Source: Gammaproteobacteria bacterium (GTDB lineage: Bacteria > Pseudomonadota > Gammaproteobacteria > Ga0077536). Taken from it: a DNA stretch of 64,000 nucleotides. Every line of letters begins with the position of its first letter. Position 1 is the stretch's first letter. Positions 30,792-64,000 of this stretch are shown here, piece after piece. The position numbers were made by a program, and so were the translations under genes. The notes beneath the pieces were generated by a model. That model was not told the DNA's origin and searched no databases. It was given only the letters and a program-made list of their open reading frames with translations. The stretch spans positions 5,027 to 69,026 of the forward strand of contig JBFWYG010000002.1 of assembly GCA_050186725.1 (NCBI GenBank), written 5' to 3'.

Positions 30792-32030
30792 ATGCTGGTC
30801 CGGGGGGGTCTAGTGGATTTCAGATACAACGACAAGTCGCGCCAGTTGCTCGAGCAGGTGCGTGCCTTCATGCACGAGCACGTCTATCCCATCGAGGAAG
30901 AGATCTACACCTTCAACCACGACCCCAAGAACCTGTGGGTCGTGCCGCCGCAGATCGAGGAACTCAAGCAGCTGGCCAAGGCCCAGGGCCTGTGGAACCT
31001 GTTCCTGCCGCACGAATACAGCGACTACAGCCCCGGCCTGACCAATCTCGAATACGCGCCGCTGGCCGAAGAGATGGGCCGCGTGCACTGGGCCTCGGAG
31101 GTCTTCAACTGCTCCGCGCCCGATACCGGCAACATGGAAGTGCTCGCGCGCTACGGTACGCCCGAACAGAAGAAGCAGTGGCTCGAACCGCTGCTGGCCG
31201 GCCAGATCCGCTCCTCCTACCTGATGACGGAGCCGCAGGTGGCGTCTTCCGACGCGACCAACGTCGAGACCTCGATCAAGCGCGACGGCGACGAATACGT
31301 CATCAACGGCCGCAAGTGGTGGAGTTCCTGCGTGTTCGATCCCAGGAACAAGATCTACATCCTGATGGGCAAGACCGACCCGTCCGCCGCGCGCCACGTG
31401 CAGCAGTCGATGATCCTGGTGCCCGCGGGCACGCCGGGCTTCGAAATCCTGCGCCCGCTGCGCGTGCTGAACGACCTGCACTCGCCCCACGGTCACGGCG
31501 AAGTGCGCATGACCAACATGCGCGTGCCGGCCTCCAACCTGCTGCTCGGCGAGGGCCGCGGCTTCGAGATCGCGCAGGGTCGCCTCGGCCCGGGCCGCAT
31601 CCACCATTGCATGCGCCTCATCGGCGCCGCGCAGCGCGCGCTCGACATCATGTGCAAGCGGGTCGAGAGCCGCGTGGCCTTCGGCAAGAAGCTGTCTGAC
31701 CAGTCGAGCATCCGCCAGGACATCGCCAAGTCCCGCTGCGAAATAGAGCAGGCCCGCCTGCTGACGCTGTGGGCCGCCGACCGCCTGGACCGCGAGGGCA
31801 ACAAGCTGGCCAAGGACGCCATCGCCATGATCAAGATTTCCGTGCCGACCATGTGCCAGACCGTCGCCGACAGAGCGATGCAGGCCCACGGCGGCATGGG
31901 TGTCTGCCAGGACACGGTGCTGCCGGAGATCTTCTCCTACGCCCGTGCCGTGCGCCTGGCCGACGGACCTGACGAGGTGCACATGTCGCAGCTCGGCAAG
32001 TTGACCATCCAGCAGACGCTGGCGGGTTGA
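30792..32030 (+). CDS. Acyl-CoA dehydrogenase
   Basis: ACAD N-terminal, middle and C-terminal domain pattern (…GGMG… near the C-terminus, catalytic Glu region). A GTG at 30813 is an alternative start. Confidence 0.85.
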
Positions 32031-32241
32031 GCGCTGGTCGCCTGACGCAGGCTCGGGTTTCGTTCGCGCCGGTGTCGTGATGCGGGTTTCGCCCCACCAC
32101 CACGTCACCCCCGCGCGGCGCTTCGGGGAAGACGGCCTAACTGCCGTCACGAGGCGCGCCACGCGGGGCATGAACGAGACCATGAACCGGACGATCGGCG
32201 CCGTAACTAGATAATCATTACCATCGGGAGAGTTTCATTCC

Positions 32242-34671
32242 ATGAGGTTCCGAGTAGCAAAATGGATCATGACGCACCGCTTCGGTGTGGGCATGGCCTT
32301 CCTCATCGTGACACTGGGTTTCATGAGCCAGTTTCCGAAAGTCGAGATCCGCACGATCTACAACGACTTCCTGCCGACCAACGAAGAGTTCGTGAAGATC
32401 TTCTTCGCGCATCGCAACTTCGGTAATCCGCTGACCATGTCCATCATGGTCAAGAACAAGAACGGCGACATCTACAACCCGGAAACGCTGGCCAAGGTCT
32501 ACGCCATCACGCGCGACATCGACCTCGCGCCGTATATCGACCATGACCAGATCATCTCCATCTCGACGGAGAAGATGCGCTACGCGGAAGCCACGCGTGA
32601 CGGCATCGACACCAAGCCGCTGATGAGCGACCATGCGCCGGCCACCGAGGAGGAGATCGCGGAGTTCCGTCGCCGCGTGAACATCTCCTCCGGCGCTCAG
32701 ACCTTCTACATCTCCGGCGACAGCACCGCGACCCTGATCAACGCCGCCTTCCTCGATACCATCGACTACGGCGAAGCGTTCAAGTACGTGCAGGATCTGG
32801 TGGTCAAGAACCGCGACGCCAACCACGAGGTACACCTCGTCGGACAGCCCGCGCTCACCGGCTGGGTGTACAAGCTGCAGCACCAGACCTACACCATCTT
32901 CGCCACCACCATCGGCGTGATGCTCCTGCTGCTGGTGTTCTACATGGGCAACATCGCCGGCACCGTGATGCCGCTCGCGAGCGCGGCGACCGCCGGCATC
33001 TGGGGCTTTGGCACCATCGGCTGGTACGAGCGTCCGATCGAGCCGCTCCTGATGATCGTGCCGCTGCTGCTGGTGGCCCGCTCCATCTCGCACTGCATTC
33101 AGTACACCGAGCGCTACTACGAGGTGCTGAATCATGTGAAGGACAAGGTGCTGGCCGCCGAGATCACCATGGCGATCATGATGGCGCCATCGATCCTCGG
33201 CATCTTCACCGACGTGTTCGGCATCATCTTCATCGCCATCGCGCCGATCAAGACGATGATCAACCACTCGATCTTCTGCGGCTGGTGGGCGTTCTGGATC
33301 ATCCCGACCGGCGTGTTCCTGGCCTCCATCCTGCTGTCCTACCTGCCGGTGCCGAATAATCTCGAGAAGATCGTCGGCGGCGCGGAGAAGGAATCCGCCT
33401 TCCATCGTTGGCAGACTGGGCTGCTGGAGAACATCGCGCACATCACCTACGGCAACGCCGCGCGCGTCACCGCCGTGGTGGTCACGATCGTTGCCGTCAT
33501 CGCGATCTACCTGACCTCGCAGATCAAGGTCGGCAACCCGGTCGAGGGCACCAACCTGCTGTGGAACGAGTCGGAGTTCAACACCGGCACGCGCGCCATC
33601 AACGCGCACTTCCCCGGCACCAACACGCTGGAAATCGTGCTGGAAGCCAAGGAGCGCAAGAACGACCATCGCGTGGTGAACACCCCGGACGTCGTGCAGG
33701 TGGCGACCGAGATGCAACGCTCGCTGGAATCGGATCGCTCCGATCCCAACCTGCCGCCGCGCGCCACGCTGTCGTTCTCGGACTACATGCGTGACATCAA
33801 CCGCCTGTTCGCCGGCGGTAACCCGAAGTGGATGCCGCTGGATCCGACGCCGGAAGCGATTTCGGCCGCCGGCTTCGCCGCGCTGATGGGCTCCAACGCC
33901 ATCAACTTCAGCCACGTCGCCGACTTCGAGTTCCAGGACTCGACGGTCTCCGCGTGGTTCCGCGACAACAAGCAGGGCACGGTGGACGCGGCGCTCGCCT
34001 CGGCCTTCGCGGCCGGCGAAAAGGTGGGTCTGGACCATCCCGAGTTCAAGGTGCGTATCGCCACCGGCGTGATCGCGCTCCAGCAGGCGATGAACAACGT
34101 GGTCAAGAAGTACCACTGGCTCATCCTCGGCTGCGTGAACATCGGCGTGTTCTTCCTGGCCTGGTACGCCTATCGGTCCATGGTCGCGGCCTTCCTGCTG
34201 CTGGTGCCGGTGAACCTGTCGAACTTCATGCTGATGGCCTCGATGCACGTCATCGGCATCGGTCTCGACATCAACGCGGCCATCGTCGCGGTGATGGGCG
34301 TGGGCGTGGGTATCGACTACGGCATCTACCTCTTGTCCCGCATCTGCGAGGAGTACGTGGCGCAGGACCAGGATCTGAAGAAGGCCATCTTTGCCTCGCT
34401 GACCACGACCGGCAAGGCCATCATGTTCACCGCGTCGATCATGCTGCTCGCCATCCTGCCGTGGTACTTCCTGTCGGATCTGAAGTTCATGGCCGACATG
34501 GGCGTGCTGCTGGTGGCCATCATGCTGATCAACATGGTGCTGTCGCTGGTCGTGCTGCCGCTCCTGGTGTGGTTCGTCAATCCGAACTTCATGCGCCGCA
34601 CGGACCTGATGGTCGGCGAGAACGTCGACCTGACGCAGTTCATGGACAAGGTCGACGAAGCCGTCGTCTGA
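32242..34671 (+). CDS. RND-superfamily exporter, MMPL/SSD family (paralog 1)
   Basis: 809 aa. Two 6-TM bundles, each preceded by a large periplasmic domain, and an SSD-like TM region. GGGAGAG RBS. About 55-60% identical to 51896..54310 by eye. Confidence 0.8.
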   Translation: MRFRVAKWIMTHRFGVGMAFLIVTLGFMSQFPKVEIRTIYNDFLPTNEEFVKIFFAHRNFGNPLTMSIMVKNKNGDIYNPETLAKVYAITRDIDLAPYIDHDQIISISTEKMRYAEATRDGIDTKPLMSDHAPATEEEIAEFRRRVNISSGAQTFYISGDSTATLINAAFLDTIDYGEAFKYVQDLVVKNRDANHEVHLVGQPALTGWVYKLQHQTYTIFATTIGVMLLLLVFYMGNIAGTVMPLASAATAGIWGFGTIGWYERPIEPLLMIVPLLLVARSISHCIQYTERYYEVLNHVKDKVLAAEITMAIMMAPSILGIFTDVFGIIFIAIAPIKTMINHSIFCGWWAFWIIPTGVFLASILLSYLPVPNNLEKIVGGAEKESAFHRWQTGLLENIAHITYGNAARVTAVVVTIVAVIAIYLTSQIKVGNPVEGTNLLWNESEFNTGTRAINAHFPGTNTLEIVLEAKERKNDHRVVNTPDVVQVATEMQRSLESDRSDPNLPPRATLSFSDYMRDINRLFAGGNPKWMPLDPTPEAISAAGFAALMGSNAINFSHVADFEFQDSTVSAWFRDNKQGTVDAALASAFAAGEKVGLDHPEFKVRIATGVIALQQAMNNVVKKYHWLILGCVNIGVFFLAWYAYRSMVAAFLLLVPVNLSNFMLMASMHVIGIGLDINAAIVAVMGVGVGIDYGIYLLSRICEEYVAQDQDLKKAIFASLTTTGKAIMFTASIMLLAILPWYFLSDLKFMADMGVLLVAIMLINMVLSLVVLPLLVWFVNPNFMRRTDLMVGENVDLTQFMDKVDEAVV

Positions 34672-34920
34672 GCCGCCTGATTGCCGCCGCGCCGCTCGGC
34701 GCGGCGGCCCGCCTTCGGCCCCTCGCCCGCGCGGCGGGGGGCCCTCTCTTCCCCTCCGCCGACAACCTGTCCGTCTTCCGCCTACACGCGGACGGCCACG
34801 CGATTTCGTGCATCCTGACCGGCAGCGCGCGACATGCCGGTGTTAGACTGATGACCATTCCACGGCGCGCTCGGCGCGTCCCCTTCGACCGCCCGGCGGT
34901 CGCGTGCATCGAGGCCAGGC

Positions 34921-36003: not shown

Positions 36004-36082
36004 GGCGGGCTATCGGCCGCCTCCTCCACCACGCCGCGTCTGCCCCGGCCTGACACCCCCCCCAGGCCGCGCGCCCCACACC

Positions 36083-37351: not shown

Positions 37352-37372
37352 GGCACGCCGCGCGGCGGCGCC

Positions 37373-38733: not shown

Positions 38734-39588
38734 ATGTTCCTCATCATCGGCATCGTCCTCGTGCTCGGCTGCGTGGCCGGCGGTTTCGTCCTGTCCCACG
38801 GCGAGCTGGCGGCCCTGTGGCAGCCCTACGAACTCCTGGTGATCGGCGGCGCCGCACTGGGCGCCTTCGTCATCGCCAACCCCATGAAGGTGATCAAGGC
38901 CACCTTCGGCGCGATCCCCAAGCTGCTCAAGGGCTCGAAGTACAAGAAAGAGCTCTACATGGACACCCTGGCGCTGCTCTACGACCTGCTGGTCAAGGCG
39001 CGCAAGCAGGGCATGATGGCGCTGGAAGGCGACGTCGACAAACCGGAGTCCAGCGAGATTTTCGGCAAGTACCCGACCCTGATGGCCGACCACCACCTGA
39101 TCGAATTCATCACCGACTACCTGCGCCTGCTGGCGGCCGGCAGCATCACCAGCCCCTACGAGCTCGACGCCTTGATGGACGTCGAGCTCGAGACCCACCA
39201 CCACGACGGCCACCAGCCGGCGGCGGCGCTGACCCGCGTGTGCGACGGCCTGCCGGGCTTCGGCATCGTCGCCGCGGTGCTCGGCATCGTCATCACCATG
39301 GGCGCCATCGGCGGACCGCCGGCGGAGCTCGGCCATCACGTCGCGGCGGCGCTGGTCGGCACCTTCTTGGGCATCCTTCTCGCCTACGGCTTCGTCGGCC
39401 CGATGGCGACCGCGGTCGAGCACATGGCGGCGGACGAGGCGCAGATGTTCCTCGCCATCAAGAACACGCTGGTGGCCTCGGCGCAGGGCTATGCCCCGCA
39501 GATCGCCATCGAGTTCGGCCGCAAGGCCATCGGCGGCCCGGACCGGCCGTCGTTCTCGGAGCTCGAGACCCGCGTGAAGGGCAAGTGA
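38734..39588 (+). CDS. motA: Flagellar motor stator protein MotA/PomA family
   Basis: 4-TM topology, conserved GPPAELGHHVAAALVGTFLGIL plug/TM3-4 region, 284 aa. Confidence 0.85.
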   Translation: MFLIIGIVLVLGCVAGGFVLSHGELAALWQPYELLVIGGAALGAFVIANPMKVIKATFGAIPKLLKGSKYKKELYMDTLALLYDLLVKARKQGMMALEGDVDKPESSEIFGKYPTLMADHHLIEFITDYLRLLAAGSITSPYELDALMDVELETHHHDGHQPAAALTRVCDGLPGFGIVAAVLGIVITMGAIGGPPAELGHHVAAALVGTFLGILLAYGFVGPMATAVEHMAADEAQMFLAIKNTLVASAQGYAPQIAIEFGRKAIGGPDRPSFSELETRVKGK

Positions 39589-39607
39589 CGGCCGGAGTCC
39601 ACTGAGC

Positions 39608-40759
39608 ATGGCCGCGAACCAGTCCGCCGCGCCGATCATCATCAAGAAGATCAAGAAGGGCGGCCATGGGCACCATGGCGGCGCCTGGAAGGTCGCGTTC
39701 GCCGACTTCGTGACGGCGATGATGGCCTTCTTCCTCCTGATGTGGCTGATGGCCTCGACCACCGTCGAGCAGCGCGCATCGATCTCGTCCTATTTTAACG
39801 ACCCGATGGCCAAGGTCGGCTTCGACGGCAACGGCGGCGGCAACCCCGCCTTGAACGGCGGCAGCGGCATTCTCACCGGGCGCGGGAAGAATCCCTTCAG
39901 CGGTCAATCCCAAGACGAAGAGAACAGCACCCGCAACGGGCCAGACGTGATGCTCGACGACGAACAGATCGAGCGCGCGCGCATGGTGCAGATGATGGAC
40001 GAGCTGAAGGAGGTGGTGGACGCCGGCAAGGCGCTCAAGGAGTTCGCCGACCAGATCCTGCTCGACATCACGCCCGAGGGGCTGCGCATTCAGATAGTCG
40101 ACAAGGAGAACCGCGCGATGTTCGACCAGGGCAGCGCGCGGCTGCAGCCCTACACCCGCGACATCCTGCACGAGATCGTGAAAGTGGTAAGCGAGGCGCC
40201 GAACCGCATCAGCATCTCCGGCCACACCGACGCCACGCCCTACGCGCGCAATGGCGACTATGGCAACTGGGAACTGTCCGCCGACCGCGCCAACGCCGCG
40301 CGCCGCGAACTGCTGGCCGGCGGGCTGGAGGAGGAGAAGATCGGACGCGTGGTCGGGCTCGGCTCTTCCGACCTGCTGGACCCCAGCCAGCCGCGCGCGC
40401 CCATCAACCGCCGCATCAGCATCGTGGTGCTGCGTGGCGATCATGGCACCGATACCAACCCGGACGGCAGCGCCGACGGCGCCCCCCCGCCGACGGCGCA
40501 AGAAGGCGAAGCGCTGCCCGCGCCCAGTGAAGCCCCCGAGGACGGCGCGCCGCCCGCGGCCGAAACCACCGATGGCGACACCGCGAGTGCGAGCGGCGCC
40601 AGTGAGGCCGCACCCGCGCTGGCGGGCCTGACCAGCGCGGCGAGCGCCGCGGACGCCGCGAGTCGCGCGGTGGCGAAGAAACTCGCCGCCAAGCCCGCGG
40701 CACCGGTCAAGACCAAGGCCAGGACCACCCGGCCGCGCGCCGCCAAGACCAAGGGCTGA
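39608..40759 (+). CDS. motB: Flagellar motor stator protein MotB (OmpA-like) with long Ala/Pro/Lys-rich C-terminal tail
   Basis: N-terminal TM with conserved Asp (FADFVTAMMAFFLLMW), OmpA-like peptidoglycan-binding core (ISGHTDATP...NWELSADRA). About 110 aa low-complexity extension. Confidence 0.8.
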   Translation: MAANQSAAPIIIKKIKKGGHGHHGGAWKVAFADFVTAMMAFFLLMWLMASTTVEQRASISSYFNDPMAKVGFDGNGGGNPALNGGSGILTGRGKNPFSGQSQDEENSTRNGPDVMLDDEQIERARMVQMMDELKEVVDAGKALKEFADQILLDITPEGLRIQIVDKENRAMFDQGSARLQPYTRDILHEIVKVVSEAPNRISISGHTDATPYARNGDYGNWELSADRANAARRELLAGGLEEEKIGRVVGLGSSDLLDPSQPRAPINRRISIVVLRGDHGTDTNPDGSADGAPPPTAQEGEALPAPSEAPEDGAPPAAETTDGDTASASGASEAAPALAGLTSAASAADAASRAVAKKLAAKPAAPVKTKARTTRPRAAKTKG

Positions 40760-40876
40760 TGCGTCTCCGGCGCGCTGCGCGCGCGCCTGGCCAGGCCTCT
40801 CCCGCCGCGCCGCGGGCGCGCGATCCGACGTGCTACACTCGAGGCCGTTCACGCACGCCACACGAGGGAGTCTCAC

Positions 40877-41860
40877 TTGTCGCGCGCCCACTCTGCACGG
40901 ATCGCGCGCGACGATGTCGTCCGCCTGAGCCAGCTCCGCTCGCTGCCCAACCTGGCCAAGCTCAGCCTGATCACAGGCCTGATGACCGGCCTCACCTGGC
41001 TGGCCTGGCACACTGAAGAGGCGCCGCTACGCTGGGCCGCCTACGTCGCCCTCGGCTACCTGTGGATGTCCATCGTGACCTTCATGCACGACGCCGGGCA
41101 CAACACGCTGTGGCCGCGACGCTGGCTGAACACCGCCTTCGGCGTCGTCGCCATGCTGCCGCTGTTCGCCTCGTTCATCGCCTTCAAGCAGGACCACTAC
41201 GAGCACCACCGCTTCAACCGCTCACCGCGCGATCCCGACGCATTCACCATGGGCAAACGCGGTGCGCTCGACTTCGTGCTGTTCTATGCCTACATGGCCT
41301 TCGGCGCGGTGCTGAGCCTGGTGCACTTCAACCTGCTCTACCCCATCGCGCGCTTCAACCGGCGACAGTGGGCCATGCACCTGTTCGAGACAGGCCTCAA
41401 GGTCGTGGTCTACTGGCTGGCACTGGGCTACGCGGCGCGCCACGGCGTGCTCGGCCGCGCGCTCGAAGTGTGGCTGTGGCCGGTGTTCTTCTTCTCGCTG
41501 TTCAATTCCATGCGCTTCATGGCCGAGCACTACGGCACGCCCTGGAACGCCGGACAGATGTCGGGCACGCGCACCATCACCTCGAACCGCCTGCACGCGT
41601 TCTTCTGGAACAACATCAACTGGCACATCGGCCACCACGTGTACCCGAGCGTGCCGTGGTACAACCTGGTGGAACTGCATCACCTTCTGCTCCCGCAGAT
41701 CGAAGCGAGCGGCGCGCTGGTCGACAAGAGCTACGTCGGCGTGTGCTGGCGGGCGCTGCGCGACGGGCCGGAGACGGAGACCCGGCTGGCACGGGCATTG
41801 GCGAAGCGCAGAGTCGCCGAACATGGCGAGTTGAAACCCGCCCTGCAGACACCGTTGTAG
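40877..41860 (+). CDS. Membrane fatty acid desaturase
   Basis: Histidine boxes HDAGH, HYEHH and HIGHHVYP in a 4-TM scaffold. The last 12 codons and the stop are encoded by a REP-A element. Confidence 0.8.
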   Translation: MSRAHSARIARDDVVRLSQLRSLPNLAKLSLITGLMTGLTWLAWHTEEAPLRWAAYVALGYLWMSIVTFMHDAGHNTLWPRRWLNTAFGVVAMLPLFASFIAFKQDHYEHHRFNRSPRDPDAFTMGKRGALDFVLFYAYMAFGAVLSLVHFNLLYPIARFNRRQWAMHLFETGLKVVVYWLALGYAARHGVLGRALEVWLWPVFFFSLFNSMRFMAEHYGTPWNAGQMSGTRTITSNRLHAFFWNNINWHIGHHVYPSVPWYNLVELHHLLLPQIEASGALVDKSYVGVCWRALRDGPETETRLARALAKRRVAEHGELKPALQTPL

Positions 41861-43830: not shown

Positions 43831-44094
43831 GGAGCGGCCATGTCGAGGGCAGGGGTCATGGGAGGGCGCTTTACGCGCGTGCGGTCTTGCGGCTGGAAAG
43901 TCAGGGCGGAGCGTACACGCGCGGCGAACGCTGGGCAATGCGCGCGGCCGTGCTTGCCCGGGCCGACGAATTCACTAAGATGCGCGGGTCGCGCCGTGGT
44001 TGGGGACCAAGGCGCGCCGTCGGCGCGACCTCGGTCGCTCCCCTACCCGCTCACCGACCATGCGCCGCTCATTCACGGCGGCGACGGAAACGAC

Positions 44095-45099: not shown

Positions 45100-45162
45100 G
45101 GCGCGCGGGCGGCACGCAGAGATCCCGGCCATCACCCGCGGCAGCAAGGTCCACAGGCAGGC

Positions 45163-54652: not shown

Positions 54653-57127
54653 ATGAAGCGCGCGCTGCAAGCCCTGTACGAAGGCCTGGTCATCGACCGT
54701 CCAGCCTGGACCCTGCTGCTGCTGCTGCTGCTGCTCGGCGCGGCGGCGAGCGGCGTGCCGAAGTTCCGGCTCGATGCCTCGGCGGACTCGCTGCTGCTGG
54801 AGAGCGATCCGGATCTGAAGCAGTTCCGCGACCTCGCCCAGCGCTACCACGCGCGCGACTTCCTGTTCATGACAGTGACGCCGCGGGAAGCGCTGCTGGC
54901 GCCCGCCACGCTCACCTTGATCAAGTCGCTGCGCGAGGAACTGAAGGCGCTGCAGACGGTGGACTCGGTGACCACGGTGATCGACGTGCCGCTGGTCAGG
55001 AACATCAAGGGCGGACTGTCCAAGGTGGTGTCGAACTACCGCACGCTCGAGTCCAAGGACGTCAACCCCGACAAGGCGCTGGAAGAACTGACCACCAGCC
55101 CGCTGTATCGCAACATGGTGGTCAGCGCCGACGGCAAGACCACCGCCATCCGCATCACGCTGAAGCCGCCGCCGGCGGGCTTCGCGGAACTCCAGTACGA
55201 ACGCGGCGACCTGCTCTACAAGCGCGCCACCGGCCACGCCAGCGCGGCGGAACTGGTGCGCCTGGCCGAGATCGAGCCGCTCTACCAGCGCCAGAAGGAC
55301 GCGGTCGACGCCACCAACCACGCCACCATCGACCAGCTGCGCGAGGTCATGCGCACCCACCGCGACCAGGCCGAGATCCACCTCGGCGGCGTGGCGATGA
55401 TCGCCGACGACATGATCGGCTACGTGCGCAACGACATCGTGGTGTTCGGCACCGCCTCCTTCCTGCTCGCCATCGGCATGCTGGGCTACATCTTCCGCGA
55501 GGCGCGCTGGGTGGTGATCCCGGTGCTGAACTGCGGCTTCATCACCCTCGGCATTCTGGGCGTCCTCGGTCACGCGGGCTGGAAGCTGACGGTCATCTCG
55601 TCGAACTTCCTCGCGCTCACGCTGATCCTCGCCATCTCGATCAACATCCACCTCATCGTGCGCTACCGCGAGCTGTACCGCGAGCGGCGCGAGCAGAGCC
55701 ACCGCGACCGCGTGCGGCAGGTGTGCCGCGACATGGCGAGCCCCTGCCTGTACACCTCGCTGACCTCGATCATCGGCTTCGGCTCGCTGCTCTCGAGCGA
55801 CATCCGCCCCATCGCCGATTTCGGCGCGATGATGAGCCTGAGCCTCATCCTGGTGTACTTCGTGGTGTTCACGCTGGTGCCGGCGATGATGATCCTGCTG
55901 CCGGAACGGGCGCCCCGGGTCGACGACGACGGCCAGTCGGGCTTCACCGTGTGGCTCGCGCGCATCACCGACCGCCACGGCTTCGGCGTGATGGCGGCGA
56001 CCACCCTGGTGGTGGGACTGAGCGCGGTCGGCATCTCGCGGCTCGAGGTCGAGAACAGCTTCATCAACTATTTCCGCGAGAAGACCGAGATCTACCAGGG
56101 CCTGAAGCGGGTCGACGAGGCCTTGGGCGGCACCACGCCGCTCGAAATAGTGCTGAAGTTCCCGTCCACCGAGGTCAAGCCCACCGGCGGCGACGAACTG
56201 GAAGCGGCGCTGTTCGAGGACGACGGCGGCGACAAGTCCGACACCTGGTTCACCGCCGACAAGATCGAGCGCATCAAGCGCGTGCACGACTACGTCGCGG
56301 CGATCCCCGGGGTCGGCACGGTGCAGTCGCTGGCGTCCATCGTGCGCGTGGCCGAGCAGCTGAACGAGGGGCGTGAGTTCGATCCCTTCGAGCTCAACGT
56401 GATCTACAAGCGCATCCCGGCGGCGCTGCGCGAGGAACTGCTGACGCCCTACATCAACATCGAGCACGACGAGGCGCGCATCACGCTGCGCATCCTGGAC
56501 TCGACGCCGAACCTGCGCCGGCAGGCGCTGCTCGATCACCTCAATCGCGGCCTGACCGAGGAGTTGCGCCTGGAACCCGGCCGCGACTTCGAGGTGGCCG
56601 GCCTGCTGGTGCTCTACAACAACATGCTGCAGAGCCTGTACAGCTCGCAGATCGCCTCGATCGGCAGCGCCATGCTCGGCATCCTGCTGACGCTCTGGTT
56701 CCTGTTCCGCAACCTGCGCGCGGCCTTCATCGGCATCGTGCCCAACCTGGTCGCGGCAGGCGCGGTGCTGGGCTTCATGGGCTGGGCGGAAGTGCCGCTC
56801 GACATGATGACCATCATGGTCGCGGCGCTCACCATGGGTATCGCGGTCGAAGACTGCATCCATTACCTGTATCGCTACCGGCTGGAGTACTTGCGCCTGG
56901 GCAACGGCCTCGAGACGATGTACCACTGCCACGGCAACATCGCCCGCGCCGGCTTCTACACCACGCTGGTGGTGTGCGCCGGCTTCTCGATCCTGATGCT
57001 GTCGAACTTCACGCCCAGCATCCTGTTCGGCCTGCTGACCACCATCGCGATGGGCATCGCCATCCTGGCCGCGCTGACCTTGATGCCGAAGCTGCTCCTG
57101 ATGTGGGAGCCGTTTCGCAAGGCGTGA
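54653..57127 (+). CDS. RND-superfamily exporter, MMPL family, HpnN-like subtype
   Basis: 824 aa. Poly-Leu signal-anchor (TLLLLLLLLGAAASG). Two periplasmic domains and two 6-TM bundles. Distinct from the other four paralogs. Confidence 0.75.
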   Translation: MKRALQALYEGLVIDRPAWTLLLLLLLLGAAASGVPKFRLDASADSLLLESDPDLKQFRDLAQRYHARDFLFMTVTPREALLAPATLTLIKSLREELKALQTVDSVTTVIDVPLVRNIKGGLSKVVSNYRTLESKDVNPDKALEELTTSPLYRNMVVSADGKTTAIRITLKPPPAGFAELQYERGDLLYKRATGHASAAELVRLAEIEPLYQRQKDAVDATNHATIDQLREVMRTHRDQAEIHLGGVAMIADDMIGYVRNDIVVFGTASFLLAIGMLGYIFREARWVVIPVLNCGFITLGILGVLGHAGWKLTVISSNFLALTLILAISINIHLIVRYRELYRERREQSHRDRVRQVCRDMASPCLYTSLTSIIGFGSLLSSDIRPIADFGAMMSLSLILVYFVVFTLVPAMMILLPERAPRVDDDGQSGFTVWLARITDRHGFGVMAATTLVVGLSAVGISRLEVENSFINYFREKTEIYQGLKRVDEALGGTTPLEIVLKFPSTEVKPTGGDELEAALFEDDGGDKSDTWFTADKIERIKRVHDYVAAIPGVGTVQSLASIVRVAEQLNEGREFDPFELNVIYKRIPAALREELLTPYINIEHDEARITLRILDSTPNLRRQALLDHLNRGLTEELRLEPGRDFEVAGLLVLYNNMLQSLYSSQIASIGSAMLGILLTLWFLFRNLRAAFIGIVPNLVAAGAVLGFMGWAEVPLDMMTIMVAALTMGIAVEDCIHYLYRYRLEYLRLGNGLETMYHCHGNIARAGFYTTLVVCAGFSILMLSNFTPSILFGLLTTIAMGIAILAALTLMPKLLLMWEPFRKA

Positions 57128-57138
57128 TCGACGCCGTG

Positions 57139-57230: not shown

Positions 57231-57253
57231 CGGATGCGGGAACACACGCCCTC

Positions 57254-57663
57254 TCACCCCGCCCGCGTCGCTCCGACCATCACCGCCGCCATCACGCAGG
57301 GCCGATCGCTACGATTCTGCCAGCGGTGACGCGTGCCGTTCTGCACCACGCAGTCGCCGGCGCGTACGCAGCGTTCCGCGCCGTCGTCGAGTTCGAGCCA
57401 CACTTCGCTGCTCAGCATCACGACGAAGTCGAGCGTGTCGGTGGTGTGCATGCCATGCGCGTCCTTCTCGTGGGCATGGCCCAGTCCCGGCACCTTGGCG
57501 TTGTATTCCGCGCGCAGCGCTTCCCGGCAGGTAGGTGCTGACGCCGAGCGAGGGATCGCCGCCAGCGCGTGGCACCAGAGGCGCGGCGCCGGTGGTCCAC
57601 AGGGTGTTCAGCTTCCGGCCCGGCCTTGCCGGCCACGTCGTGACCGGTGACGATGCGTCGCAT
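57254..57663 (-). pseudogene. Cupin-domain gene disrupted by two frameshifts
   Basis: A recognisable cupin protein is split over three minus-strand frames. MRRIVTGHDVAGKAG... is in one frame. ...LNTLWTTGAAPLVPRAGGDPSLGVSTYLP... is in a second. ...PGLGHAHEKDAHGMHTTDTLDFVVMLSSEVWLELDDG...GDCVVQNGTRHRWQNRSDRPCVMAAVMV is in a third. Confidence 0.55.
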
Positions 57664-57810
57664 GGCGACAGGCTCCTCATCTGTTTCCGGCAATTGCTGG
57701 TCGGGCTTCAGCCCGACATTGCCGGCGACGTCGAGGTCACACTCGGACGCGCTGCATCGTCAACACACACGGGGGCGATTTGCCCCAGCACTTCACCCAG
57801 GAGCAAGTCC

Positions 57811-59019
57811 ATGCAGCAACTCGTCATCATCGGCGGCGGCTTCGCCGGCCTGTGGGCCGCGCTGGTCGCGGCGCGCGAAGCGCACGTCGCCGACCGGCCG
57901 CTGGCCATCACCCTGGTCGCGCCCGATGACGCGCTGACCGTGCGTCCGCGGCTCTACGAGCCCTTCACACCAGCCTTCCGCGCGCCCTTCGCGCCGCTGT
58001 TCGAGCCGCTTGGCATCGCCCAGCTGCGCGCCCACGCGACCGATCTCGATACCGTCGCGCGATGCGTCCGGGTCCAGCTTGCCGACGGCGCGTCGCGTGA
58101 CCTGCCCTACGATCGCGTGGTGCTCGCGGCCGGCAGCCGCCAGGCGCCGCTGCCCGTAGCCGGCGCCGCCGAACATGCGCTCGACCTCGACACTTACGTC
58201 GCCGCGGAACGCTTCCACGCGCATCTCGCGGCCGTCGTCGCGGCGCCCGTCTCGCCGGCGACCTCGACCTTCGTCGTGATCGGCGGCGGCTTCACCGGCA
58301 TCGAGATGGCCTGCGAACTGCGCCGCCACCTGCGCGCGCTCGGCGCCACCGCGGCCGCGCGCGACGCGCGGGTGGTGCTGGTCGAGCGCGCCACCGAAAT
58401 CGGGCCGGAACTCGGCGCCGGTCCGCGCGCGACCATCCTCGAGGCTCTGCAGCACTGCGGCGTGGAACTGCGACTCGGCGCGCAGGTATCACGTATCGAG
58501 GCCGACGCGGTCACCTTCCAGGATGGCGAACGCCTGCCCTGCGCGACCACCGTCATCGCCACCGGCCTGCGCGCCCATCCACTCACCGGCGGCCTGGGCG
58601 TGGAACTCGATGGGCAGGGCCGGCTGCCGGTGGACGAACATCTGGAGGTGATCGGCGCGCCGGGGGTGTATGCCGCCGGCGACCTGGCGCGCGCGCGCGT
58701 CGATGACGCGGGCCATGTCGCGCTGATGTCCTGCCAGCATGCCGTGCCCCAGGGCAAGCACGCCGGCTACAACGCCGCCCACGCCCTGCTGGGCCTCGCG
58801 CCGCGGGCCTACCGCCAGCCGGACTACGTCACTTGCCTGGATCTCGGCGACTACGGCGCGGTGTTCACCACCGGGTGGGAACGCACGGTGGCGCAGGCGG
58901 GCGCGGACGTGAAGGCGCTGAAGCAGACCGTCAACACCCAGTGGATCTACCCGCCAAAAGGCGACCTCGAGACGCTGCTCGCGGCCTGCGACATCGACGC
59001 GCCCTGGCCACCCGTGTAG
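57811..59019 (+). CDS. NAD(P)/FAD-dependent oxidoreductase (type II NADH dehydrogenase-like, pyridine nucleotide-disulfide family)
   Basis: Two dinucleotide-binding GxGxxG motifs (IIGGGFAG, VIGGGFTG) and a GD motif (YAAGDLA). AGGAG RBS. Confidence 0.8.
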   Translation: MQQLVIIGGGFAGLWAALVAAREAHVADRPLAITLVAPDDALTVRPRLYEPFTPAFRAPFAPLFEPLGIAQLRAHATDLDTVARCVRVQLADGASRDLPYDRVVLAAGSRQAPLPVAGAAEHALDLDTYVAAERFHAHLAAVVAAPVSPATSTFVVIGGGFTGIEMACELRRHLRALGATAAARDARVVLVERATEIGPELGAGPRATILEALQHCGVELRLGAQVSRIEADAVTFQDGERLPCATTVIATGLRAHPLTGGLGVELDGQGRLPVDEHLEVIGAPGVYAAGDLARARVDDAGHVALMSCQHAVPQGKHAGYNAAHALLGLAPRAYRQPDYVTCLDLGDYGAVFTTGWERTVAQAGADVKALKQTVNTQWIYPPKGDLETLLAACDIDAPWPPV

Positions 59020-59086
59020 GTCGGACTTGCACCCGACATTCCAACGCTAGCTGGGACAGACCCCGTGCGGGGTCTGTCCCTTCCCC
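59020..59086. repeat. REP-like structured element family B, second copy, directly after the ndh-like stop
   Basis: gtcggactt...cgacatt...gggacagacccc-gtgc-ggggtctgtccc-ttcccc. Identical 12-bp stem to copy 1, loop differs. Confidence 0.5.
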
Positions 59087-59140
59087 AAAAAAATGGCGCC
59101 CCGAAGGGCGCCATGGCAGAGCGAAACCGGGCGTCCTGCC

Positions 59141-61582
59141 TCAGATCGATGTTTTGGCGAGAGCGTCTGCCTGCCAGCCACCGAGGTTGCGGTCGCGCAG
59201 GGTGTCGGAATCGTCGATGTGCGAGTCCATGACGAACTTCGGCTTGAACACCCGGATCCACAGCGGGATCACGGTGATGGCGCCGATCATGTTGCTGGTC
59301 AGGAGCAGGCACAGGAGCAGCGCCATCTCGCTGTTGAAGCGCAGCGAGGAACCCGGGATCCAGTAGATGATGCCCGCCATCACGGTCATGCCGGTGAAGA
59401 GGATGGCCGCGCCGGTGGTGCGCATCGAGGTGACGATGGCGTCCAGCAGCGAGCGATGGCGCATCTCCTCCTTCAGGCGGTCGAGCATGTAGATCGCGTA
59501 GTCGACGCCGACGCCGATACCCACCGAGGTCACCGGCAGCGTGTTGACGTTGAGACCGATGTCGCGAATGGTCATGAACGCGCGGTTGGTCATCACGCAG
59601 ATGATCAAGAGCACGAACACCATGAGCCCGGCGAAGATCGAGCGATAGGCGATCATGATGGCCAGCGTCACCAGGGTGATGATGGTGATGGTCATCTTGA
59701 GGTCCGAGATCTCGGTCTCCTCGTTGGCCGCCGCCGTCGTACCGATGATGCCGCCCGCGAGCAGCGGGGTCACGCCTTCCATCTTGTGCGTCTCCAGGAA
59801 GGCCTTGGCCTTGGCGACCGCCTCGGACACCGTCTGGCCGGTCGCGTCCTTGTAGAACACCGTGAAGTTCGCGATGCGGCCCTCCAAGTCCATGTACTCC
59901 AGGATCACGCCCGGCACCGCCGCGCCCGCCTCGTACATGAACAGCGTGTTGCCGATGTCCTTCTGCGTCGCGGGGATCAGCGACCAGCGCGGGTCGTCGT
60001 AGTGATACAGGCGGTTGATCGAGCGCACCAGGTGCGGAATGTCGCGCGTGCCGCCGAAGTTGGAGGTGCCGGCCATGTAGCGACCGAACTCTTCCATCAT
60101 CGCGACCACCTCAGGGTCCTTCATCTTGTGGGGCTCGTTGCCCTCGAAGAAGATGTTGAACTGGTTCGCGCCGGCGAAACGATCGGCAATGGTCTTGGCC
60201 GCGACGTTGTACTCCTGGTCCTGGAACAGGATGGGCGAACCAGGCTGCTTCTCGCCGATGTCGACGTGCCAGCCGAACCAGAACGCCCACACGGTGAGCG
60301 CGATGGCGCCCACGAAGATGGTCGAGGAGGCCTTCGGCCCGACCAGGAACACGCCCATGTTGTGCATCATGCGCGACGGCAGGTGCTTGTGCTCTTCCTG
60401 CACGGTGACCTTGGGCGTCGGCAGCACGGACATGATGAGCGGCACCAGCACCGCCACTGTGATCAGGTTCGACGCGCCCCAGAACGAGCAGTAGATGCCG
60501 AGCTTGGCGATCAGCGGCATGGAGGACAGGGCCAGCACCAGCAGCGCCATGGCGTCGGCCAGGATGCCGAGACCCGCCGGCAGGATCAGCTCGCCCATGG
60601 CGATGCGCACCGCCTGTTCCTTCTCGCGCCCGACGCGAATTTCGTCGTAGTAGCGCTCCATCATCTGCACGCAGTGACTGGCCGTTCGCGCCGATATGAG
60701 GATCGGTACCACCAGGATCAGCGGGTCCAGGTTGTAGTGCATCCAGCCGACAAAGCCGAGGCCCCAGATGGCCGACAGCGCCGTGCCGAGCGTCGGCACC
60801 ACCACGCCCGTGACCGAGCCGAAGTGAATCCAGAGCAGCAGCACCATCACCGCGCCGGTGACGCCGAAGATGGTCTTCAACTCCTTCGAGTAGAAGTAGA
60901 TCCAGCCCTTCAGCATCGGCTCGCCGGCGATGTAGAGCCGCGTCTGCCCGTCCTTCTCCACCTCTTCCTTCAAGCTCTGCAGCTTGGTGTGGATGTCGAC
61001 GTAGTTCAGGCGCTCTTCGTCGAAGCCGGCGACCACCAGCGCGGCGCGGCCGTCGGTGGATAGATAAGTGCCGTAGACGATGTCGTTGTTGAACGATTCC
61101 TCGCGCAGTTGCTTCAGCGCCTCGGGATCGGTCGGCAAATCCTTGGGCAACACCGACTCGGACTTGATCAGACCGCCGGCCGTGGTGCGGATGCGACGGA
61201 TCTTGGGATGCGCGATGCTCGCCACCTGGTAGTGGTTCACGCCGGCGATCAGGTCCACCTGCTCGGTGATGTGCACGATCTTCTTCAGCGTGTCGTGGGT
61301 GAACACGTCGCCGTTGGGATCAGTGACCTCCAGCGCCATGGTCACCACGTTGGCGCCGCCGAAGGTCTGCTTCATGCGGTTGTAGTTGACGATGTACTCG
61401 TGCTTGGCGGGCAGCAGGTCGGCGAAGCGCGAGAACACTTCGATCTTCGGGATGTGCAGGGCGAGCATGATGGTCGGGACCAGGATCACCGCGAAGGAGA
61501 ACCACTTGCGGTCCATCATCCAGTTCGCGATGGCGTGACCACGCGTGATGCGTGGCGGCGGTGGCGGCACGACCGAACTCAT
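59141..61582 (-). CDS. RND-superfamily exporter, MMPL/SSD family (paralog 4)
   Basis: 813 aa, same architecture. About 65% identical over the alignable region to the adjacent upstream gene. Confidence 0.8.
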   Translation of the reverse strand: MSSVVPPPPPRITRGHAIANWMMDRKWFSFAVILVPTIMLALHIPKIEVFSRFADLLPAKHEYIVNYNRMKQTFGGANVVTMALEVTDPNGDVFTHDTLKKIVHITEQVDLIAGVNHYQVASIAHPKIRRIRTTAGGLIKSESVLPKDLPTDPEALKQLREESFNNDIVYGTYLSTDGRAALVVAGFDEERLNYVDIHTKLQSLKEEVEKDGQTRLYIAGEPMLKGWIYFYSKELKTIFGVTGAVMVLLLWIHFGSVTGVVVPTLGTALSAIWGLGFVGWMHYNLDPLILVVPILISARTASHCVQMMERYYDEIRVGREKEQAVRIAMGELILPAGLGILADAMALLVLALSSMPLIAKLGIYCSFWGASNLITVAVLVPLIMSVLPTPKVTVQEEHKHLPSRMMHNMGVFLVGPKASSTIFVGAIALTVWAFWFGWHVDIGEKQPGSPILFQDQEYNVAAKTIADRFAGANQFNIFFEGNEPHKMKDPEVVAMMEEFGRYMAGTSNFGGTRDIPHLVRSINRLYHYDDPRWSLIPATQKDIGNTLFMYEAGAAVPGVILEYMDLEGRIANFTVFYKDATGQTVSEAVAKAKAFLETHKMEGVTPLLAGGIIGTTAAANEETEISDLKMTITIITLVTLAIMIAYRSIFAGLMVFVLLIICVMTNRAFMTIRDIGLNVNTLPVTSVGIGVGVDYAIYMLDRLKEEMRHRSLLDAIVTSMRTTGAAILFTGMTVMAGIIYWIPGSSLRFNSEMALLLCLLLTSNMIGAITVIPLWIRVFKPKFVMDSHIDDSDTLRDRNLGGWQADALAKTSI

Positions 61583-61919
61583 AAGCGACTACTCCTGCGA
61601 ATCTGCGCAACTAGGGGCCAGGGAACCGCGGGTTCCCCTCGAACGCACCCGCGCAGCGTGCCCGATGCCTGGATGGCCGTTGCGCCGGCCGTCGGGACCA
61701 TCGTCGATGTCGCGCAGGTCAGTGGTGCCATGGCGGCGACCTGTAGGTATCCCCCCCTGCGGCGGTCGCGGCACCGGGCGGGAGTATATGCGCGATGTTG
61801 GGGCGCGCCTAGGCATTGTGCGGTCGAGGGCCGGGCGCCGACGCGCGACGTCCCAGGACGCGACACGCGGGGCCGCGACGCCTGCACGAGTGCACGGTCG
61901 CCCGCCTTCGACCGGTCGC

Positions 61920-64000
61920 CTAGCCAGCGTCGCGACCAGGTGCCGCACTACCGGACATGAACGCGCGCGACGCGGCGTCGCCGGTCGCGCAGTCGTCCCG
62001 GTGGGCGCGCAGGATGAAGCGCGGCCGCGTGATCCGCACCAGGAGCGGCAGCAGGGTCACCGCACCCAGCATGTGACTGGCGGTCAGAAGGCCCAGCAGC
62101 AGGGCCATCTCGGCAGTGAAGCGCAGCGAAGAGGCCGGCACCCACCAGGCGATGCCGGCCAGCACCGTCACCGCGGTGAACAGCACCGCCGCGCCGGTGG
62201 TGGCCAGCGCCACGCGCAGGGCGTCGTCGAGCTGGCGGTGACGCACTTCCTCGCGGATGCGGTCCAGCATGTAGATGGCGTAGTCGACGCCGAGCCCGAC
62301 GCCGACCGCGGTCACCGGCAGGGTGTTGACGTTGAGCCCGATGCCGCGCAGGCCCATGTAGGCACGATTGATCAGCACCGCCACCGCCAGCACCGCGAAG
62401 ACGAGCAGCGCCGCGCTGACCGAACGATAGGTGACCAGCACCGCCGCCATCACCATGGCGATGATCAGCACCGTCTGGCGCAGCTCCGACAGCGCCACCT
62501 CCTCGTTGGCCGCGGCCGTGGCGCCGACGATGCCGCCGGCGAAGCACGCGGTCACGCCCGCGACGTGATGTTCGTCCAGCCAGCGGTGCGCGGCGGCCAG
62601 CGCCCCCTGTATGGTCGGCCCGGTGGCGTCCCTGAAGAACACCACGAAGTTGGCCACGCGCCCCTCGAAGTCGAGATACTCGGTGATCACGCCCGGCACC
62701 GCGGCGCCGGCCTGGTACATGAACAGCGTGTTGCCGATGTCGTTCTGCGTGCGCGGCACGAGCGACCAGCGTGGATCGTCGTAGTGGTACAGGCGGTTGA
62801 CCGCGCGCACCAGGCTCGCGATGTCGCGCGTGCCCCCGACCCCGGGTTGCGCCGCCATGAAGCGCGCGAAGTCCTCCATGTGGCGCACGACCTCGGGATG
62901 CTTGATGCGCTCAGGCTGGTCGGCCTCGAAGTAGATCGACAGCTGGCTCGCGCCGGCGAAACGCGCGGCGATGTGGCGCGCGGCGACGTTGTACGCGGCC
63001 TGCGGGTAGAGGATCGGCGAGCCGGCACGCTCCTCGCCGATGAGCTGGGTGCGGCCGAACCAGGCGCTCAGCGCCACCACCAGCAGGCAGGCGAGCAGCA
63101 GCGGCCGCGTGCCGCGCGGTCCGGTCAGGAAGCGCGCGAAGCTCGCCATCAGGCGCGCGTAGACATGGCGCTCGAACGCCACGCGGTGGGTGGCCGGCAG
63201 CGGCAGCCAGGACAGCACCAGCGGCACGAGCAGCACCACGGTCACGAGGTTGCTGAACGACCAGAAGGCCGCGAAGAAGCCGAGCTTCGCGATCAGCGGG
63301 ATGGACGACACGGTCAGCACCAGCAGGCCGACCACGTCGGTGAAGATGCCGACCGCGGCCGGCACCATCAGCTCCGCCATGCAGGTCTCCACCGCCGGTC
63401 CGCGCGCGGCGCCGAGTCGAATCTCGTCGTGGTAGCGCTCCATCATCTGCACGCAGTGGCTCGCGGTGCGCGCCGAGATGATCATCGGCACCACCAGGAT
63501 CAGCGGGTCGAGGTTGTAGCCGAGCCAGGCGACGAAGCCCAAGCCCCAGACGGTCGACAGCGCCGTGCCCATGAGCGGGATCAGCACCCCGGCGAGACTG
63601 CGGAAATGGAGATACAGCAGCAGCGCCATCACCGCCAGCGTCATGCCGAAGATGCCGCGCAGCTCGTGGGCGTGGTGGTAGATCCAGCCCTTCAGCATGG
63701 GCTCGCCGGCGATGTAAAGCCGGGTCTCGCCGTCCCGCTCCACCTCGCGCTGCAGTTCGCGCAGACGCTCGAAGATGCGCCGGTAGTCGAGCCGCTCCTC
63801 GTCGAAGCCTGCCACCACCAGCGCGGCGCGCCCGTCGGTGGCGACGTAGGTGCCGTACACGATGTCGTTGTTGAAGGCCTCCTCGCGCAGGCGCTTCAGC
63901 GCGGCCGGGTCGCGCGGGATTTCGAGGGGCAGCACCGGTGTCGACTTGATGGTGCCGGTCGCGGTGGTCTCCACGCGCCGCACCTTGCCATGGGCGATGC
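61920..64000 (-). CDS. RND-superfamily exporter, MMPL/SSD family (paralog 5), 5' end beyond window
   Basis: The in-window ORF begins at a position aligning to about residue 130 of paralog 4 (…IKSTPVLPLEIPRDPAALKRLREEAFNNDIVYGTY…). The reading frame stays open to the window edge. Confidence 0.75.
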   Translation of the reverse strand, partial: IAHGKVRRVETTATGTIKSTPVLPLEIPRDPAALKRLREEAFNNDIVYGTYVATDGRAALVVAGFDEERLDYRRIFERLRELQREVERDGETRLYIAGEPMLKGWIYHHAHELRGIFGMTLAVMALLLYLHFRSLAGVLIPLMGTALSTVWGLGFVAWLGYNLDPLILVVPMIISARTASHCVQMMERYHDEIRLGAARGPAVETCMAELMVPAAVGIFTDVVGLLVLTVSSIPLIAKLGFFAAFWSFSNLVTVVLLVPLVLSWLPLPATHRVAFERHVYARLMASFARFLTGPRGTRPLLLACLLVVALSAWFGRTQLIGEERAGSPILYPQAAYNVAARHIAARFAGASQLSIYFEADQPERIKHPEVVRHMEDFARFMAAQPGVGGTRDIASLVRAVNRLYHYDDPRWSLVPRTQNDIGNTLFMYQAGAAVPGVITEYLDFEGRVANFVVFFRDATGPTIQGALAAAHRWLDEHHVAGVTACFAGGIVGATAAANEEVALSELRQTVLIIAMVMAAVLVTYRSVSAALLVFAVLAVAVLINRAYMGLRGIGLNVNTLPVTAVGVGLGVDYAIYMLDRIREEVRHRQLDDALRVALATTGAAVLFTAVTVLAGIAWWVPASSLRFTAEMALLLGLLTASHMLGAVTLLPLLVRITRPRFILRAHRDDCATGDAASRAFMSGSAAPGRDAG

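Follow-up and report, generated by a model that had tools for sequence, protein, structure and literature searches.

The cassette of one lineage of RND-superfamily transporters is composed of the RND gene and of genes for an outer-membrane beta-barrel (DUF1302), a periplasmic protein resembling LolA/LolB (DUF1329), and a beta-propeller of the BNR/Ycf48 type. In AmeABCD of Castellaniella defragrans 65Phen, AmeD is the HAE3-type RND protein, while AmeA, AmeB, and AmeC are the DUF1302, DUF1329, and COG4447 proteins, respectively; deletion of ameABCD lowers both monoterpene tolerance and Nile Red efflux (PMC6394551). For Sama_1588-1591 of Shewanella amazonensis and the Pseudomonas equivalents, the four genes were found to be cofit in several bacteria (bioRxiv 10.1101/072470), and loss of PP_0765/6 or PP_2018 specifically impairs fitness on Tween 20 and butyl stearate, PP_2019 being located in the PP_2018 operon (bioRxiv 10.1101/2020.07.04.188060). 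Co-folding predicts complexes of DUF1302 with DUF1329 and of DUF1329 with BNR and RND, and all four genes are described as essential on Tween 20 (PMC10866462). In Betaproteobacteria, the cassette shares its regulation with the catabolism of phenol and aromatics (PMC6449761); DUF1302 is still referred to as structurally and functionally uncharacterised in a 2026 paper (PMC13499233). The present analysis deals with a stretch of 64,000 nucleotides (contig JBFWYG010000002.1 of assembly GCA_050186725.1, positions 5,027 to 69,026 of the forward strand; termed the window) from a gammaproteobacterium of the lineage Ga0077536, which carries five RND genes, designated R1-R5 from left to right. They are regarded as a lineage-typical set of partner-unlinked pumps, the predicted cargo of which would be hydrophobic compounds.

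AmeD and the R1-R5 proteins have in common a length of about 800 amino acids, 12 transmembrane (TM) segments, two periplasmic loops, and the HAE3/COG1033 affiliation, and homologues of R1, R2, and R4 occur in exactly the four-gene cassette described above. The window, however, contains the RND gene only, five times, with no AmeA, AmeB, or AmeC homologue in 64 kb and without a linked monoterpene catabolic island. The same COG1033 RND class is represented by PP_2018/2019 with PP_0765/0766 and by Sama_1588-1591, where a single cofit cassette has been described instead of five RND copies. A division of the cluster into a BNR+RND and a DUF1302+DUF1329 part, as seen in P. putida and P. stutzeri, sets a precedent for separate loci (bioRxiv 10.1101/2020.07.04.188060; bioRxiv 10.1101/072470; PMC10866462), but the RND gene there keeps its BNR neighbour, whereas in the window even BNR is absent. 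HpnN (Burkholderia multivorans, 5KHN; B. pseudomallei, 6WU0) resembles the window proteins in superfamily, fold, and the standalone gene without adaptor or outer-membrane partner; it differs in that identity is 13-16% in the R3 structural alignments, that it ranks below MmpL4/5, and that no hopanoid genes lie nearby. The mycobacterial proteins MmpL3/4/5 share Pfam MMPL with R1-R5 and include the best fold matches of the R4 and R3 models, albeit at 12-17% identity, and they are actinobacterial proteins serving mycolate or siderophore export together with MmpS and AcpM partners.

The Five RND Genes and Their Family

Since the window has about 69% G+C, long spurious open reading frames (ORFs) overlap the real genes, and coding frames were chosen by third-position GC content (GC3). 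The frames of R1-R5, with GC3 values of 0.90-0.94, are coding frames, and each of the five products exceeds the gathering score of Pfam MMPL (PF03176; 54.9-107.3 bits versus 20.5 bits); opposite-strand ORFs overlapping R1-R5 gave no Pfam match. The five MMPL/RND genes proposed in an initial annotation of the sequence are thereby confirmed, and the possibility raised there that they might lie outside the MMPL family is contradicted. The genes, and a hairpin adjoining R4, are the following.

32242-34671, plus strand: R1, 809 amino acids; PF03176 54.9 bits; MMPL/HAE3-type RND protein of predicted AmeD/PP_2019-like lineage
51896-54310, plus strand: R2, 804 amino acids, GTG start; PF03176 80.6 bits; R1-type group, distinct orthogroup
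54653-57127, plus strand: R3, 824 amino acids; PF03176 94 bits; Patched SSD 28.6 bits; predicted separate RND clade
59141-61582, minus strand: R4, 813 amino acids; PF03176 107.3 bits; predicted AmeD/PP_2019-like RND protein, downstream member of a tandem
61920 to beyond 64000, minus strand: R5; PF03176 99.4 bits on the 687 amino acids visible; RND protein
59093-59114, minus strand: intrinsic-terminator-like hairpin just 3′ of the R4 stop; stem of nine pairs, 7 of them G-C, and then TTTTTT; consensus match only

The R5 frame is open up to base 63998, where it is cut by the end of the window; because the full-length orthologue (94% identical; L003:7149-9662, L-numbers denoting homologue loci) has 837 amino acids, about 145 N-terminal residues would, by length, lie outside. 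For R3, the longest ORF begins at TTG 54434, yet the ATG at 54653 is favoured as start, since the nearest database protein (P0241, 97% identical) likewise has 824 amino acids.

In all five proteins, hydropathy follows the order TM1, a loop of about 190 amino acids, TM2-6, TM7, a loop of about 200 amino acids, and TM8-12, in keeping with the 12-TM architecture with two periplasmic domains and about 800 amino acids that had been assigned initially. AlphaFold models were obtained for R4 (48-sequence alignment; pLDDT 83.5, pTM 0.79) and R3 (42-sequence alignment; pLDDT 82.3, pTM 0.74), the secondary structure of both comprising two alpha/beta domains between helix bundles. When the two models were compared with the Protein Data Bank (PDB) by Foldseek, MmpL5/MmpL4 led the list in either case (E 1e-23 to 1e-27, TM-scores 0.7-0.79), followed by NPC1L1, HpnN, MmpL3, and Patched, with overall TM-scores, NPC1 included, of 0.63-0.79. 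For the R4 model, MmpL5/4 scored E 3e-27 with TM-scores of 0.70-0.77 (MmpL5 0.71/0.74) and HpnN E 8e-20, MmpL3 and NPC1L1 also being matched; for the R3 model, MmpL5 scored E 2e-23, and HpnN (E 3e-20) ranked 16th. The PDB holds no solved structure close to these RND proteins, and a sequence-only search of it gave weak matches of the TM regions to HpnN or MmpL3. The R3 model displays a long helical hairpin in the first periplasmic domain (residues about 177-235, with helices 177-192 and 198-235; window 55181-55357), which is not present in the R4 model and may be a clade-specific insertion.

In 48 R1-/R4-type sequences, R299-x2-S302-H303-x2-Q306-x2-E309-R310 and G688xG690xG692xD694-Y695 (R4 numbering) are invariant, and according to the R4 model these motifs would be placed in TM4 and TM10, respectively. 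Among R3-type sequences, H333 (TM4) and H737/Y738 (TM10) are invariant, and N331, R337, and D734 are nearly so. In other RND pumps, TM4 and TM10 carry the proton relay, and proton coupling is predicted from the placement of the invariant motifs in these helices.

HAE3 (TIGR00921, TC 2.A.6.7) was the best NCBIfam model for all five proteins, the R4 alignment extending over residues 30-774; its cut-off was missed, but the HpnN, MmpL3, and BstA equivalog models were missed by a much wider margin. The MmpL3 model yielded 33-39 bits versus 1400 required, and the HpnN models at most 41 bits with R1, R2, R4, and R5. A match to ACR_tran was obtained for R4 only and reached at most 17.5 bits (cut-off 28), and the Pfam-scanned window genes include neither an adaptor nor an outer-membrane-factor gene; none of the five is thus predicted to be a classical AcrB-type (HAE1) tripartite pump, and the concern that one of them might be a known tripartite efflux pump is allayed. 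From the gene contexts of their homologues, R1, R2, and R4 would be members of the HAE3/COG1033 lineage of Proteobacteria, of which AmeD, PP_2019, and Sama_1591 are typical. R5 is predicted to form a sister clade of the R4 type and is placed in the cassette lineage by this position only.

R3 had initially been called HpnN-like. As a loose resemblance this is fair, its best PDB sequence match being HpnN (E 3e-8), but membership is not supported, the two HpnN models giving 97.5 bits (TIGR03480, cut-off 751.85) and 78.9 bits (NF052374, cut-off 1100). An identification of R3 as HpnN was rejected on these scores, on the fold rank, and on gene context: squalene-hopene cyclase, hpn-type, or sterol biosynthesis families were not found among the window genes scanned with Pfam, no hopanoid genes were seen around R3 homologues, and homologues sharing about 50% identity have no partner genes and are surrounded by unrelated ones (e.g., inositol monophosphatase, SBP56). 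R3-type proteins are abundant, with 6917 of 8000 scored candidates matching. R3 is therefore predicted to represent a separate, widespread, standalone RND clade of the same fold.

Two further candidate features were considered. G+C falls to 0.62 at 32001-34000 and 52001-54000, coinciding with R1 and R2, but a foreign origin was rejected, since GC3 is still 0.90-0.91 and the dips stem from low values at the first and second codon positions; these are attributed to the amino acid composition of hydrophobic membrane proteins. A sixth RND gene beyond R5 was also rejected, as the 810-amino acid ORF at 4159-6591 of L003 has no Pfam match and is overlapped by two long ORFs on the other strand; beyond R5, genes for an amidohydrolase and an SDR protein were identified in L003. 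tRNA and Rfam scans of the window gave no match.

Partner Genes, Arrangement, and Age of the Orthogroups

Linkage of the RND gene to its partners is the rule in the wider family. A profile-based scan yielded a broad sample of 80 metagenome loci, 24 of which have at least 5 kb on both sides and are termed well-flanked; at least one partner gene is found at 22 of these 24, and all three partners at 17. R4 relatives at 65-82% identity show the cassette order BNR/Ycf48-like - RND - DUF1302 - (DUF1329-like) - HEAT - DUF1329. Eleven such loci carry one to three partners (L002, L006, L007, L018, L021, L023, L026, L030, L032, L038, and L039), seven of them all three, and orthologues at 80-82% (L006, L007, L032) reside in BNR-RND-DUF1302-DUF1329 cassettes. 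A homologue of R1 in Solimonas aquatica (69%) is part of an RND-DUF1329-PSII_BNR-DUF1302-LuxR cassette. Another, on the megaplasmid of Methylibium petroleiphilum PM1 (46%), is followed in the RefSeq annotation of the cassette (MMPL - DUF1329 - "photosystem II stability/assembly factor-like" - DUF1302 - DUF1329) by the same partner families, with a LuxR regulator and two rubredoxin genes 4-7 kb upstream. For R2, the cassette-linked homologue is that of L129 (62% identical).

In a crude neighbour-joining tree, partner-less R4 copies are found in several subclades nested among cassette-linked ones, which indicates that the unlinked copies arose by duplication away from cassettes; window R1 is next to the cassette copy of Solimonas, and the cassette-linked L129 protein falls into the R2 clade. 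The neighbours of partner-less R4 homologues comprise acyl-CoA synthetase, MFS, and amidase genes (L010) or an alpha/beta hydrolase gene (L037), and at L002, an R4 relative, there are genes for thiolase, MaoC, and aldehyde dehydrogenase. At L057:12861-15769, a partner-less R4 homologue (72%) lies directly upstream of genes for two soluble di-iron (methane/phenol/alkene) hydroxylase subunits, an adjacency that again connects this family of pumps with the oxidation of hydrocarbons or aromatics.

Within the window, R1 and R2 are 52% and R4 and R5 59% identical in pairwise alignment, as had been expected from the initial annotation, whereas R1/R2 and R4/R5 share about 28% identity over the full length. 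R3 is 22-25% identical to each of the others in partial alignments; in a profile-profile comparison, the R1/R4-type and R3-type alignments join over 731 columns with a probability of 99.8% at 18% identity. Of two tandem paralogue pairs claimed initially, only R5-R4, adjacent on the minus strand, is a true one, for R1 and R2 are separated by 17 kb with twelve unrelated genes, and R2 abuts the distant R3. No terminator-like site is present between R5 and R4, which is compatible with their co-transcription. A search for a shared operator or promoter motif 5′ of R1-R5 gave only chance-level GC-rich 12-mers, and a sigma-70 scan of the window remained at background level.

Diversified substrate pockets had been suggested as well. 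Identity between R4 and R5 is 67% in the first and 61% in the second periplasmic domain versus 58-62% in the TM bundles, and preferential divergence of the periplasmic domains was not seen within the pairs R1/R2 and R4/R5. Judged by sequence, these domains give no specific sign of pocket diversification within paralogue pairs, and the suggestion is not supported.

The source lineage is an uncultured gammaproteobacterium, the closest match to R4 (99% identity) being in the metagenome-assembled genome (MAG) JAIEQK01; isolate names of other relatives point to groundwater and deep Lake Baikal. In OZ257136.1, a complete 5.7-Mb relative, a 41-kb stretch is syntenic with 26-57 kb of the window, comprising SurE - ACAD - RND - RND - CoA-transferase - MotA - MotB (ACAD, acyl-CoA dehydrogenase) in its first part and amino-acid permease - ABC-F - alcohol dehydrogenase of the pyrroloquinoline quinone (PQQ) type - DUF364 - RND - ExoD - RND (R3 type) in its second. 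Both tandem copies at the R1 position of OZ257136.1 are 71-72% identical to R1, as are the two tandem copies that occupy this position in L043 and L045. The R5-R4 tandem is kept in L003, L004, L020, and L031, and the latter three, MAGs at about 90% identity, preserve the entire order R5-R4-oxidoreductase-R3-DUF364-PQQ alcohol dehydrogenase-ABC-F. R2 is absent from its DUF364-R3 position in these three; since it is present in the window and in the more distant OZ257136.1, lineage-specific loss or relocation would account for this pattern.

R2 is 83% identical to the 801-amino acid gene product at the same position in OZ257136.1, but only 52% to R1; the identity between R5 and the R4-type proteins compared is 57-62% in every case, i.e., R5 is equidistant from all of them. 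On these sequence comparisons, R1-R5 are five old, distinct orthogroups, and recent tandem duplication was rejected as the origin of the pairs; the single "system" of the initial annotation dissolves into separate lineages. The copies tested are under purifying selection, with Ka/Ks values of 0.019 for R4 and 0.20 for R5, each versus L003, and of 0.22 for R3 versus L004; the suspicion of pseudogenes is not borne out, none of the genes being one. Against L003, the R5 protein evolves about tenfold faster than R4 (Ka 0.040 versus 0.004, with Ks of about 0.2 for both).

A second RND gene within about 22 kb is found at only 2 of the 24 well-flanked metagenome loci, so that five RND genes in 33 kb are above the family norm. 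The density is hence unusual for the family, as had been noted initially, but the layout is conserved in this lineage, and multi-RND neighbourhoods are a trait of the lineage rather than of this window alone. Whether the clustering has functional meaning is a matter of its own. That independent transporters came to lie close together through duplication or rearrangement in a paralogue-rich genome, without functional significance, has roughly an even chance of being correct. It accords with the age and distinctness of the orthogroups, the lack of a shared upstream motif, the functionally unrelated intervening genes, the gap left by R2 in the three MAGs, and the location of the R4 orthologue of OZ257136.1, which lies 2 Mb from the R1/R2/R3 region beside an AcrAB-type pump. 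The persistence of R5-R4, (R2-)R3, and ACAD-R1 across 68-90% identity argues in the opposite direction. The explanation without functional meaning bears on the arrangement alone and does not conflict with the role proposed below for each protein.

Proposed Function

R1-R5 belong to the MMPL/SSD branch of the RND superfamily and are viewed as intact inner-membrane transporters, presumably powered by the proton gradient, each of which would take up a hydrophobic molecule from the outer leaflet or from the periplasmic face. R1, R2, R4, and R5 would derive from an AmeD/PP_2019-type pump, gene copies of which were duplicated away from the cassette and kept as separate orthogroups; they might dock with DUF1329, BNR, and DUF1302 partners encoded elsewhere, or they might act alone in the manner of HpnN and MmpL3. 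R3 would act alone on a lipid-like substrate. The cassette has been proposed to transfer terpenes, fatty esters, aromatics, alkanes, or a lipidic constituent of the envelope, with the inner membrane at one end of the route and the outer membrane or the exterior at the other. Proton-driven pumps for hydrophobic compounds, with remote partners or standalone, are considered rather probable; a role with such compounds had been anticipated in the initial annotation and fits both the literature on the family and the surroundings of homologous genes. The direction of transport, the substrates, and the use of remote partners are inferred. Exogenous hydrophobic compounds are leaned towards over the cell's own lipids because of the catabolic neighbours of homologues and the ACAD gene conserved 5′ of R1.

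Several points weigh against this proposal. The TIGR00921 scores of all five proteins, from 110 bits for R1 to 158.7 bits for R3, are below the curated cut-off of 351.9 bits, so that the HAE3 assignment rests on the best match and on the literature placement of AmeD-like proteins, and the link to AmeD/PP_2019 was drawn from the cassette linkage of homologues together with that placement, without direct sequence comparison. In the 64-kb window, tblastn with two divergent partner sets (E <= 1e-5 and 1e-6) detected no DUF1302, DUF1329, or BNR gene, and Pfam scans of the called window genes detected none of the partner families; the initial annotation had overlooked this absence of the defining partners. 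Among the closest relatives, 12 of 18 well-flanked genome loci with R4 relatives are without partners, too. As partners occur neither in the window nor beside most of the close-relative orthologues, the four-component mechanism is unproven for the copies of the window. Most of the neighbours are housekeeping or transport genes without relation to R1-R5, so that gene context says little on function here. Finally, the literature holds no defined substrate for any member of the lineage, and the direction is debated between export, tolerance efflux, and acquisition. To this extent the "unknown substrates" of the initial annotation remain valid, but the family as such has already been described as a DUF1302/DUF1329/BNR-associated HAE3 lineage (PMC6394551; bioRxiv 10.1101/072470). 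A search for literature from 2019 on HAE3 RND pumps and hydrocarbons gave no match.

Acquisition would imply that hydrophobic carbon sources enter by a trans-envelope route together with DUF1302 and DUF1329, the paralogues matching different substrates. Mutants in PP_0765/6 and PP_2018 are indeed defective on Tween 20 or butyl stearate as carbon source (bioRxiv 10.1101/2020.07.04.188060), all four genes have been described as essential on Tween 20 and a "substrate transport system" has been proposed (PMC10866462), and a transposon in ameB impairs growth on monoterpenes (PMC6394551); that homologues adjoin catabolic genes and that an ACAD gene is conserved directly upstream of R1 would agree with uptake as well. 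Lost tolerance, however, explains equally well why growth on a toxic hydrophobic substrate is impaired, and Nile Red accumulation is increased in the ameABCD deletion mutant, which fits efflux (PMC6394551). The window itself is silent on direction. Characterised RND/MMPL transporters move their substrates outward from the inner membrane, which counts against uptake, and uptake is deemed quite improbable.

A more specific form of the proposal of proton-driven pumps for hydrophobic compounds would be that an HAE3 pump was uncoupled from its cassette and multiplied, so that substrate-specialised R1, R2, R4, and R5 would feed one shared conduit through periplasm and outer membrane that is encoded elsewhere ("many pumps, one exit"), R5 being the fastest to diversify. 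This is put forward as a speculation, and a doubtful one.

Gene Neighbourhood and Significance

The other genes of the window to be considered are the following.

14763-15842, plus strand: fatty-acid-hydroxylase-family gene, about 1 kb upstream of the acyltransferase gene
16787-18688, plus strand: two-domain acyltransferase, Acyltransf_2/Acyltransferase with GNAT-like Acetyltransf_5
25133-28427, plus strand: E1 dehydrogenase component, then a lipoyl and alpha/beta-hydrolase-fold protein
30792-32030, plus strand: ACAD with three Acyl-CoA_dh domains, immediately upstream of R1
38734-40759, plus strand: MotA/MotB stator pair, isolated, without other flagellar genes around
40877-41860: fatty-acid desaturase
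44096-45099, plus strand: hydrophobic membrane-protein ORF with the N-terminus MPVWIEILLMLLLILVAAEIFTNALEHLGE..., in a gap of the GC3-based gene list
48605-50695, minus strand: PQQ alcohol dehydrogenase of the quinohaemoprotein type, PQQ beta-propeller with C-terminal cytochrome c
57535-59019, plus strand: pyridine-nucleotide-disulphide oxidoreductase, Pyr_redox_2 159 bits, between R3 and R4

In addition, there are genes for a family III CoA-transferase, an FHA protein, a Na+/H+ antiporter, CitMHS, an amino-acid permease, ABC-F, and DUF364. The initial annotation had seen the RND genes as embedded among lipid genes; ACAD, CoA-transferase, and desaturase genes are indeed present, but many genes for transport and other unrelated functions lie between, and a coherent lipid locus is not formed. 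In L043 and L045, an ACAD gene whose product is 87-88% identical is again adjacent to an RND gene, and a functional link of ACAD to R1 is inferred. The oxidoreductase occurs at the same position in L004, L020, L031, and L042 (61-66% identical).

An alternative reading is standalone export of envelope lipids in the manner of HpnN and MmpL3, by which the cell's own lipids (hopanoids, ornithine lipids, unsaturated or hydroxylated lipids) would be flipped or extracted from the inner membrane and moved towards the outer membrane without dedicated partners. The domain pair of the acyltransferase at 16787-18688 resembles that of OlsF, a bifunctional ornithine-lipid synthase, and OlsE-type enzymes belong to the hydroxylase family; the region 14763-18688 may constitute a candidate ornithine-lipid locus. 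These two genes and that of the desaturase count in favour of the lipid-export reading. Moreover, none of the five RND genes has linked partner genes, R3-type genes are standalone at all loci examined, the fold equals that of HpnN, MmpL3, and MmpL4/5, and "export of a cell wall component" has been suggested for the cassette by Price et al. (bioRxiv 10.1101/072470). However, a distance of 6-13 kb separates the lipid genes from any RND gene, the two are not found in synteny in relatives, no hopanoid or sterol biosynthesis family is among the Pfam-scanned window genes, and the HpnN, MmpL3, and BstA models are missed by about 8-fold or more. R1-, R2-, and R4-type homologues are also overwhelmingly cassette-linked, often beside catabolic genes (Methylibium, L057, L002). 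Export of envelope lipids is accordingly considered unlikely.

Several observations on the remaining neighbours may be added. The synteny of the PQQ alcohol dehydrogenase gene with DUF364 and R2/R3 is kept across relatives, and MotA/MotB adjoining the family III CoA-transferase gene is kept in L043 and L045. The pair of E1 and lipoyl-hydrolase genes also precedes the syntenic block in OZ257136.1; the second protein of this pair would presumably resemble the AcoC-type E2 of acetoin dehydrogenase. The ORF at 44096-45099 looks, by eye only, like a member of the Na+/Ca2+ exchanger (CaCA) family; a Pfam scan over 43887-45689 had used another frame, and its empty result is uninformative for this ORF.

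Summarizing, the locus adds members to a known, poorly characterised family and reveals no new kind of system. The DUF1302/DUF1329/BNR/HAE3 system is widespread in Proteobacteria and recurrent in the metabolism of hydrocarbons, terpenes, aromatics, and fatty esters. With four or five partner-less orthogroups kept under selection, the lineage studied here would provide a natural experiment on whether the partners are dispensable for the pump and whether several pumps can share them.

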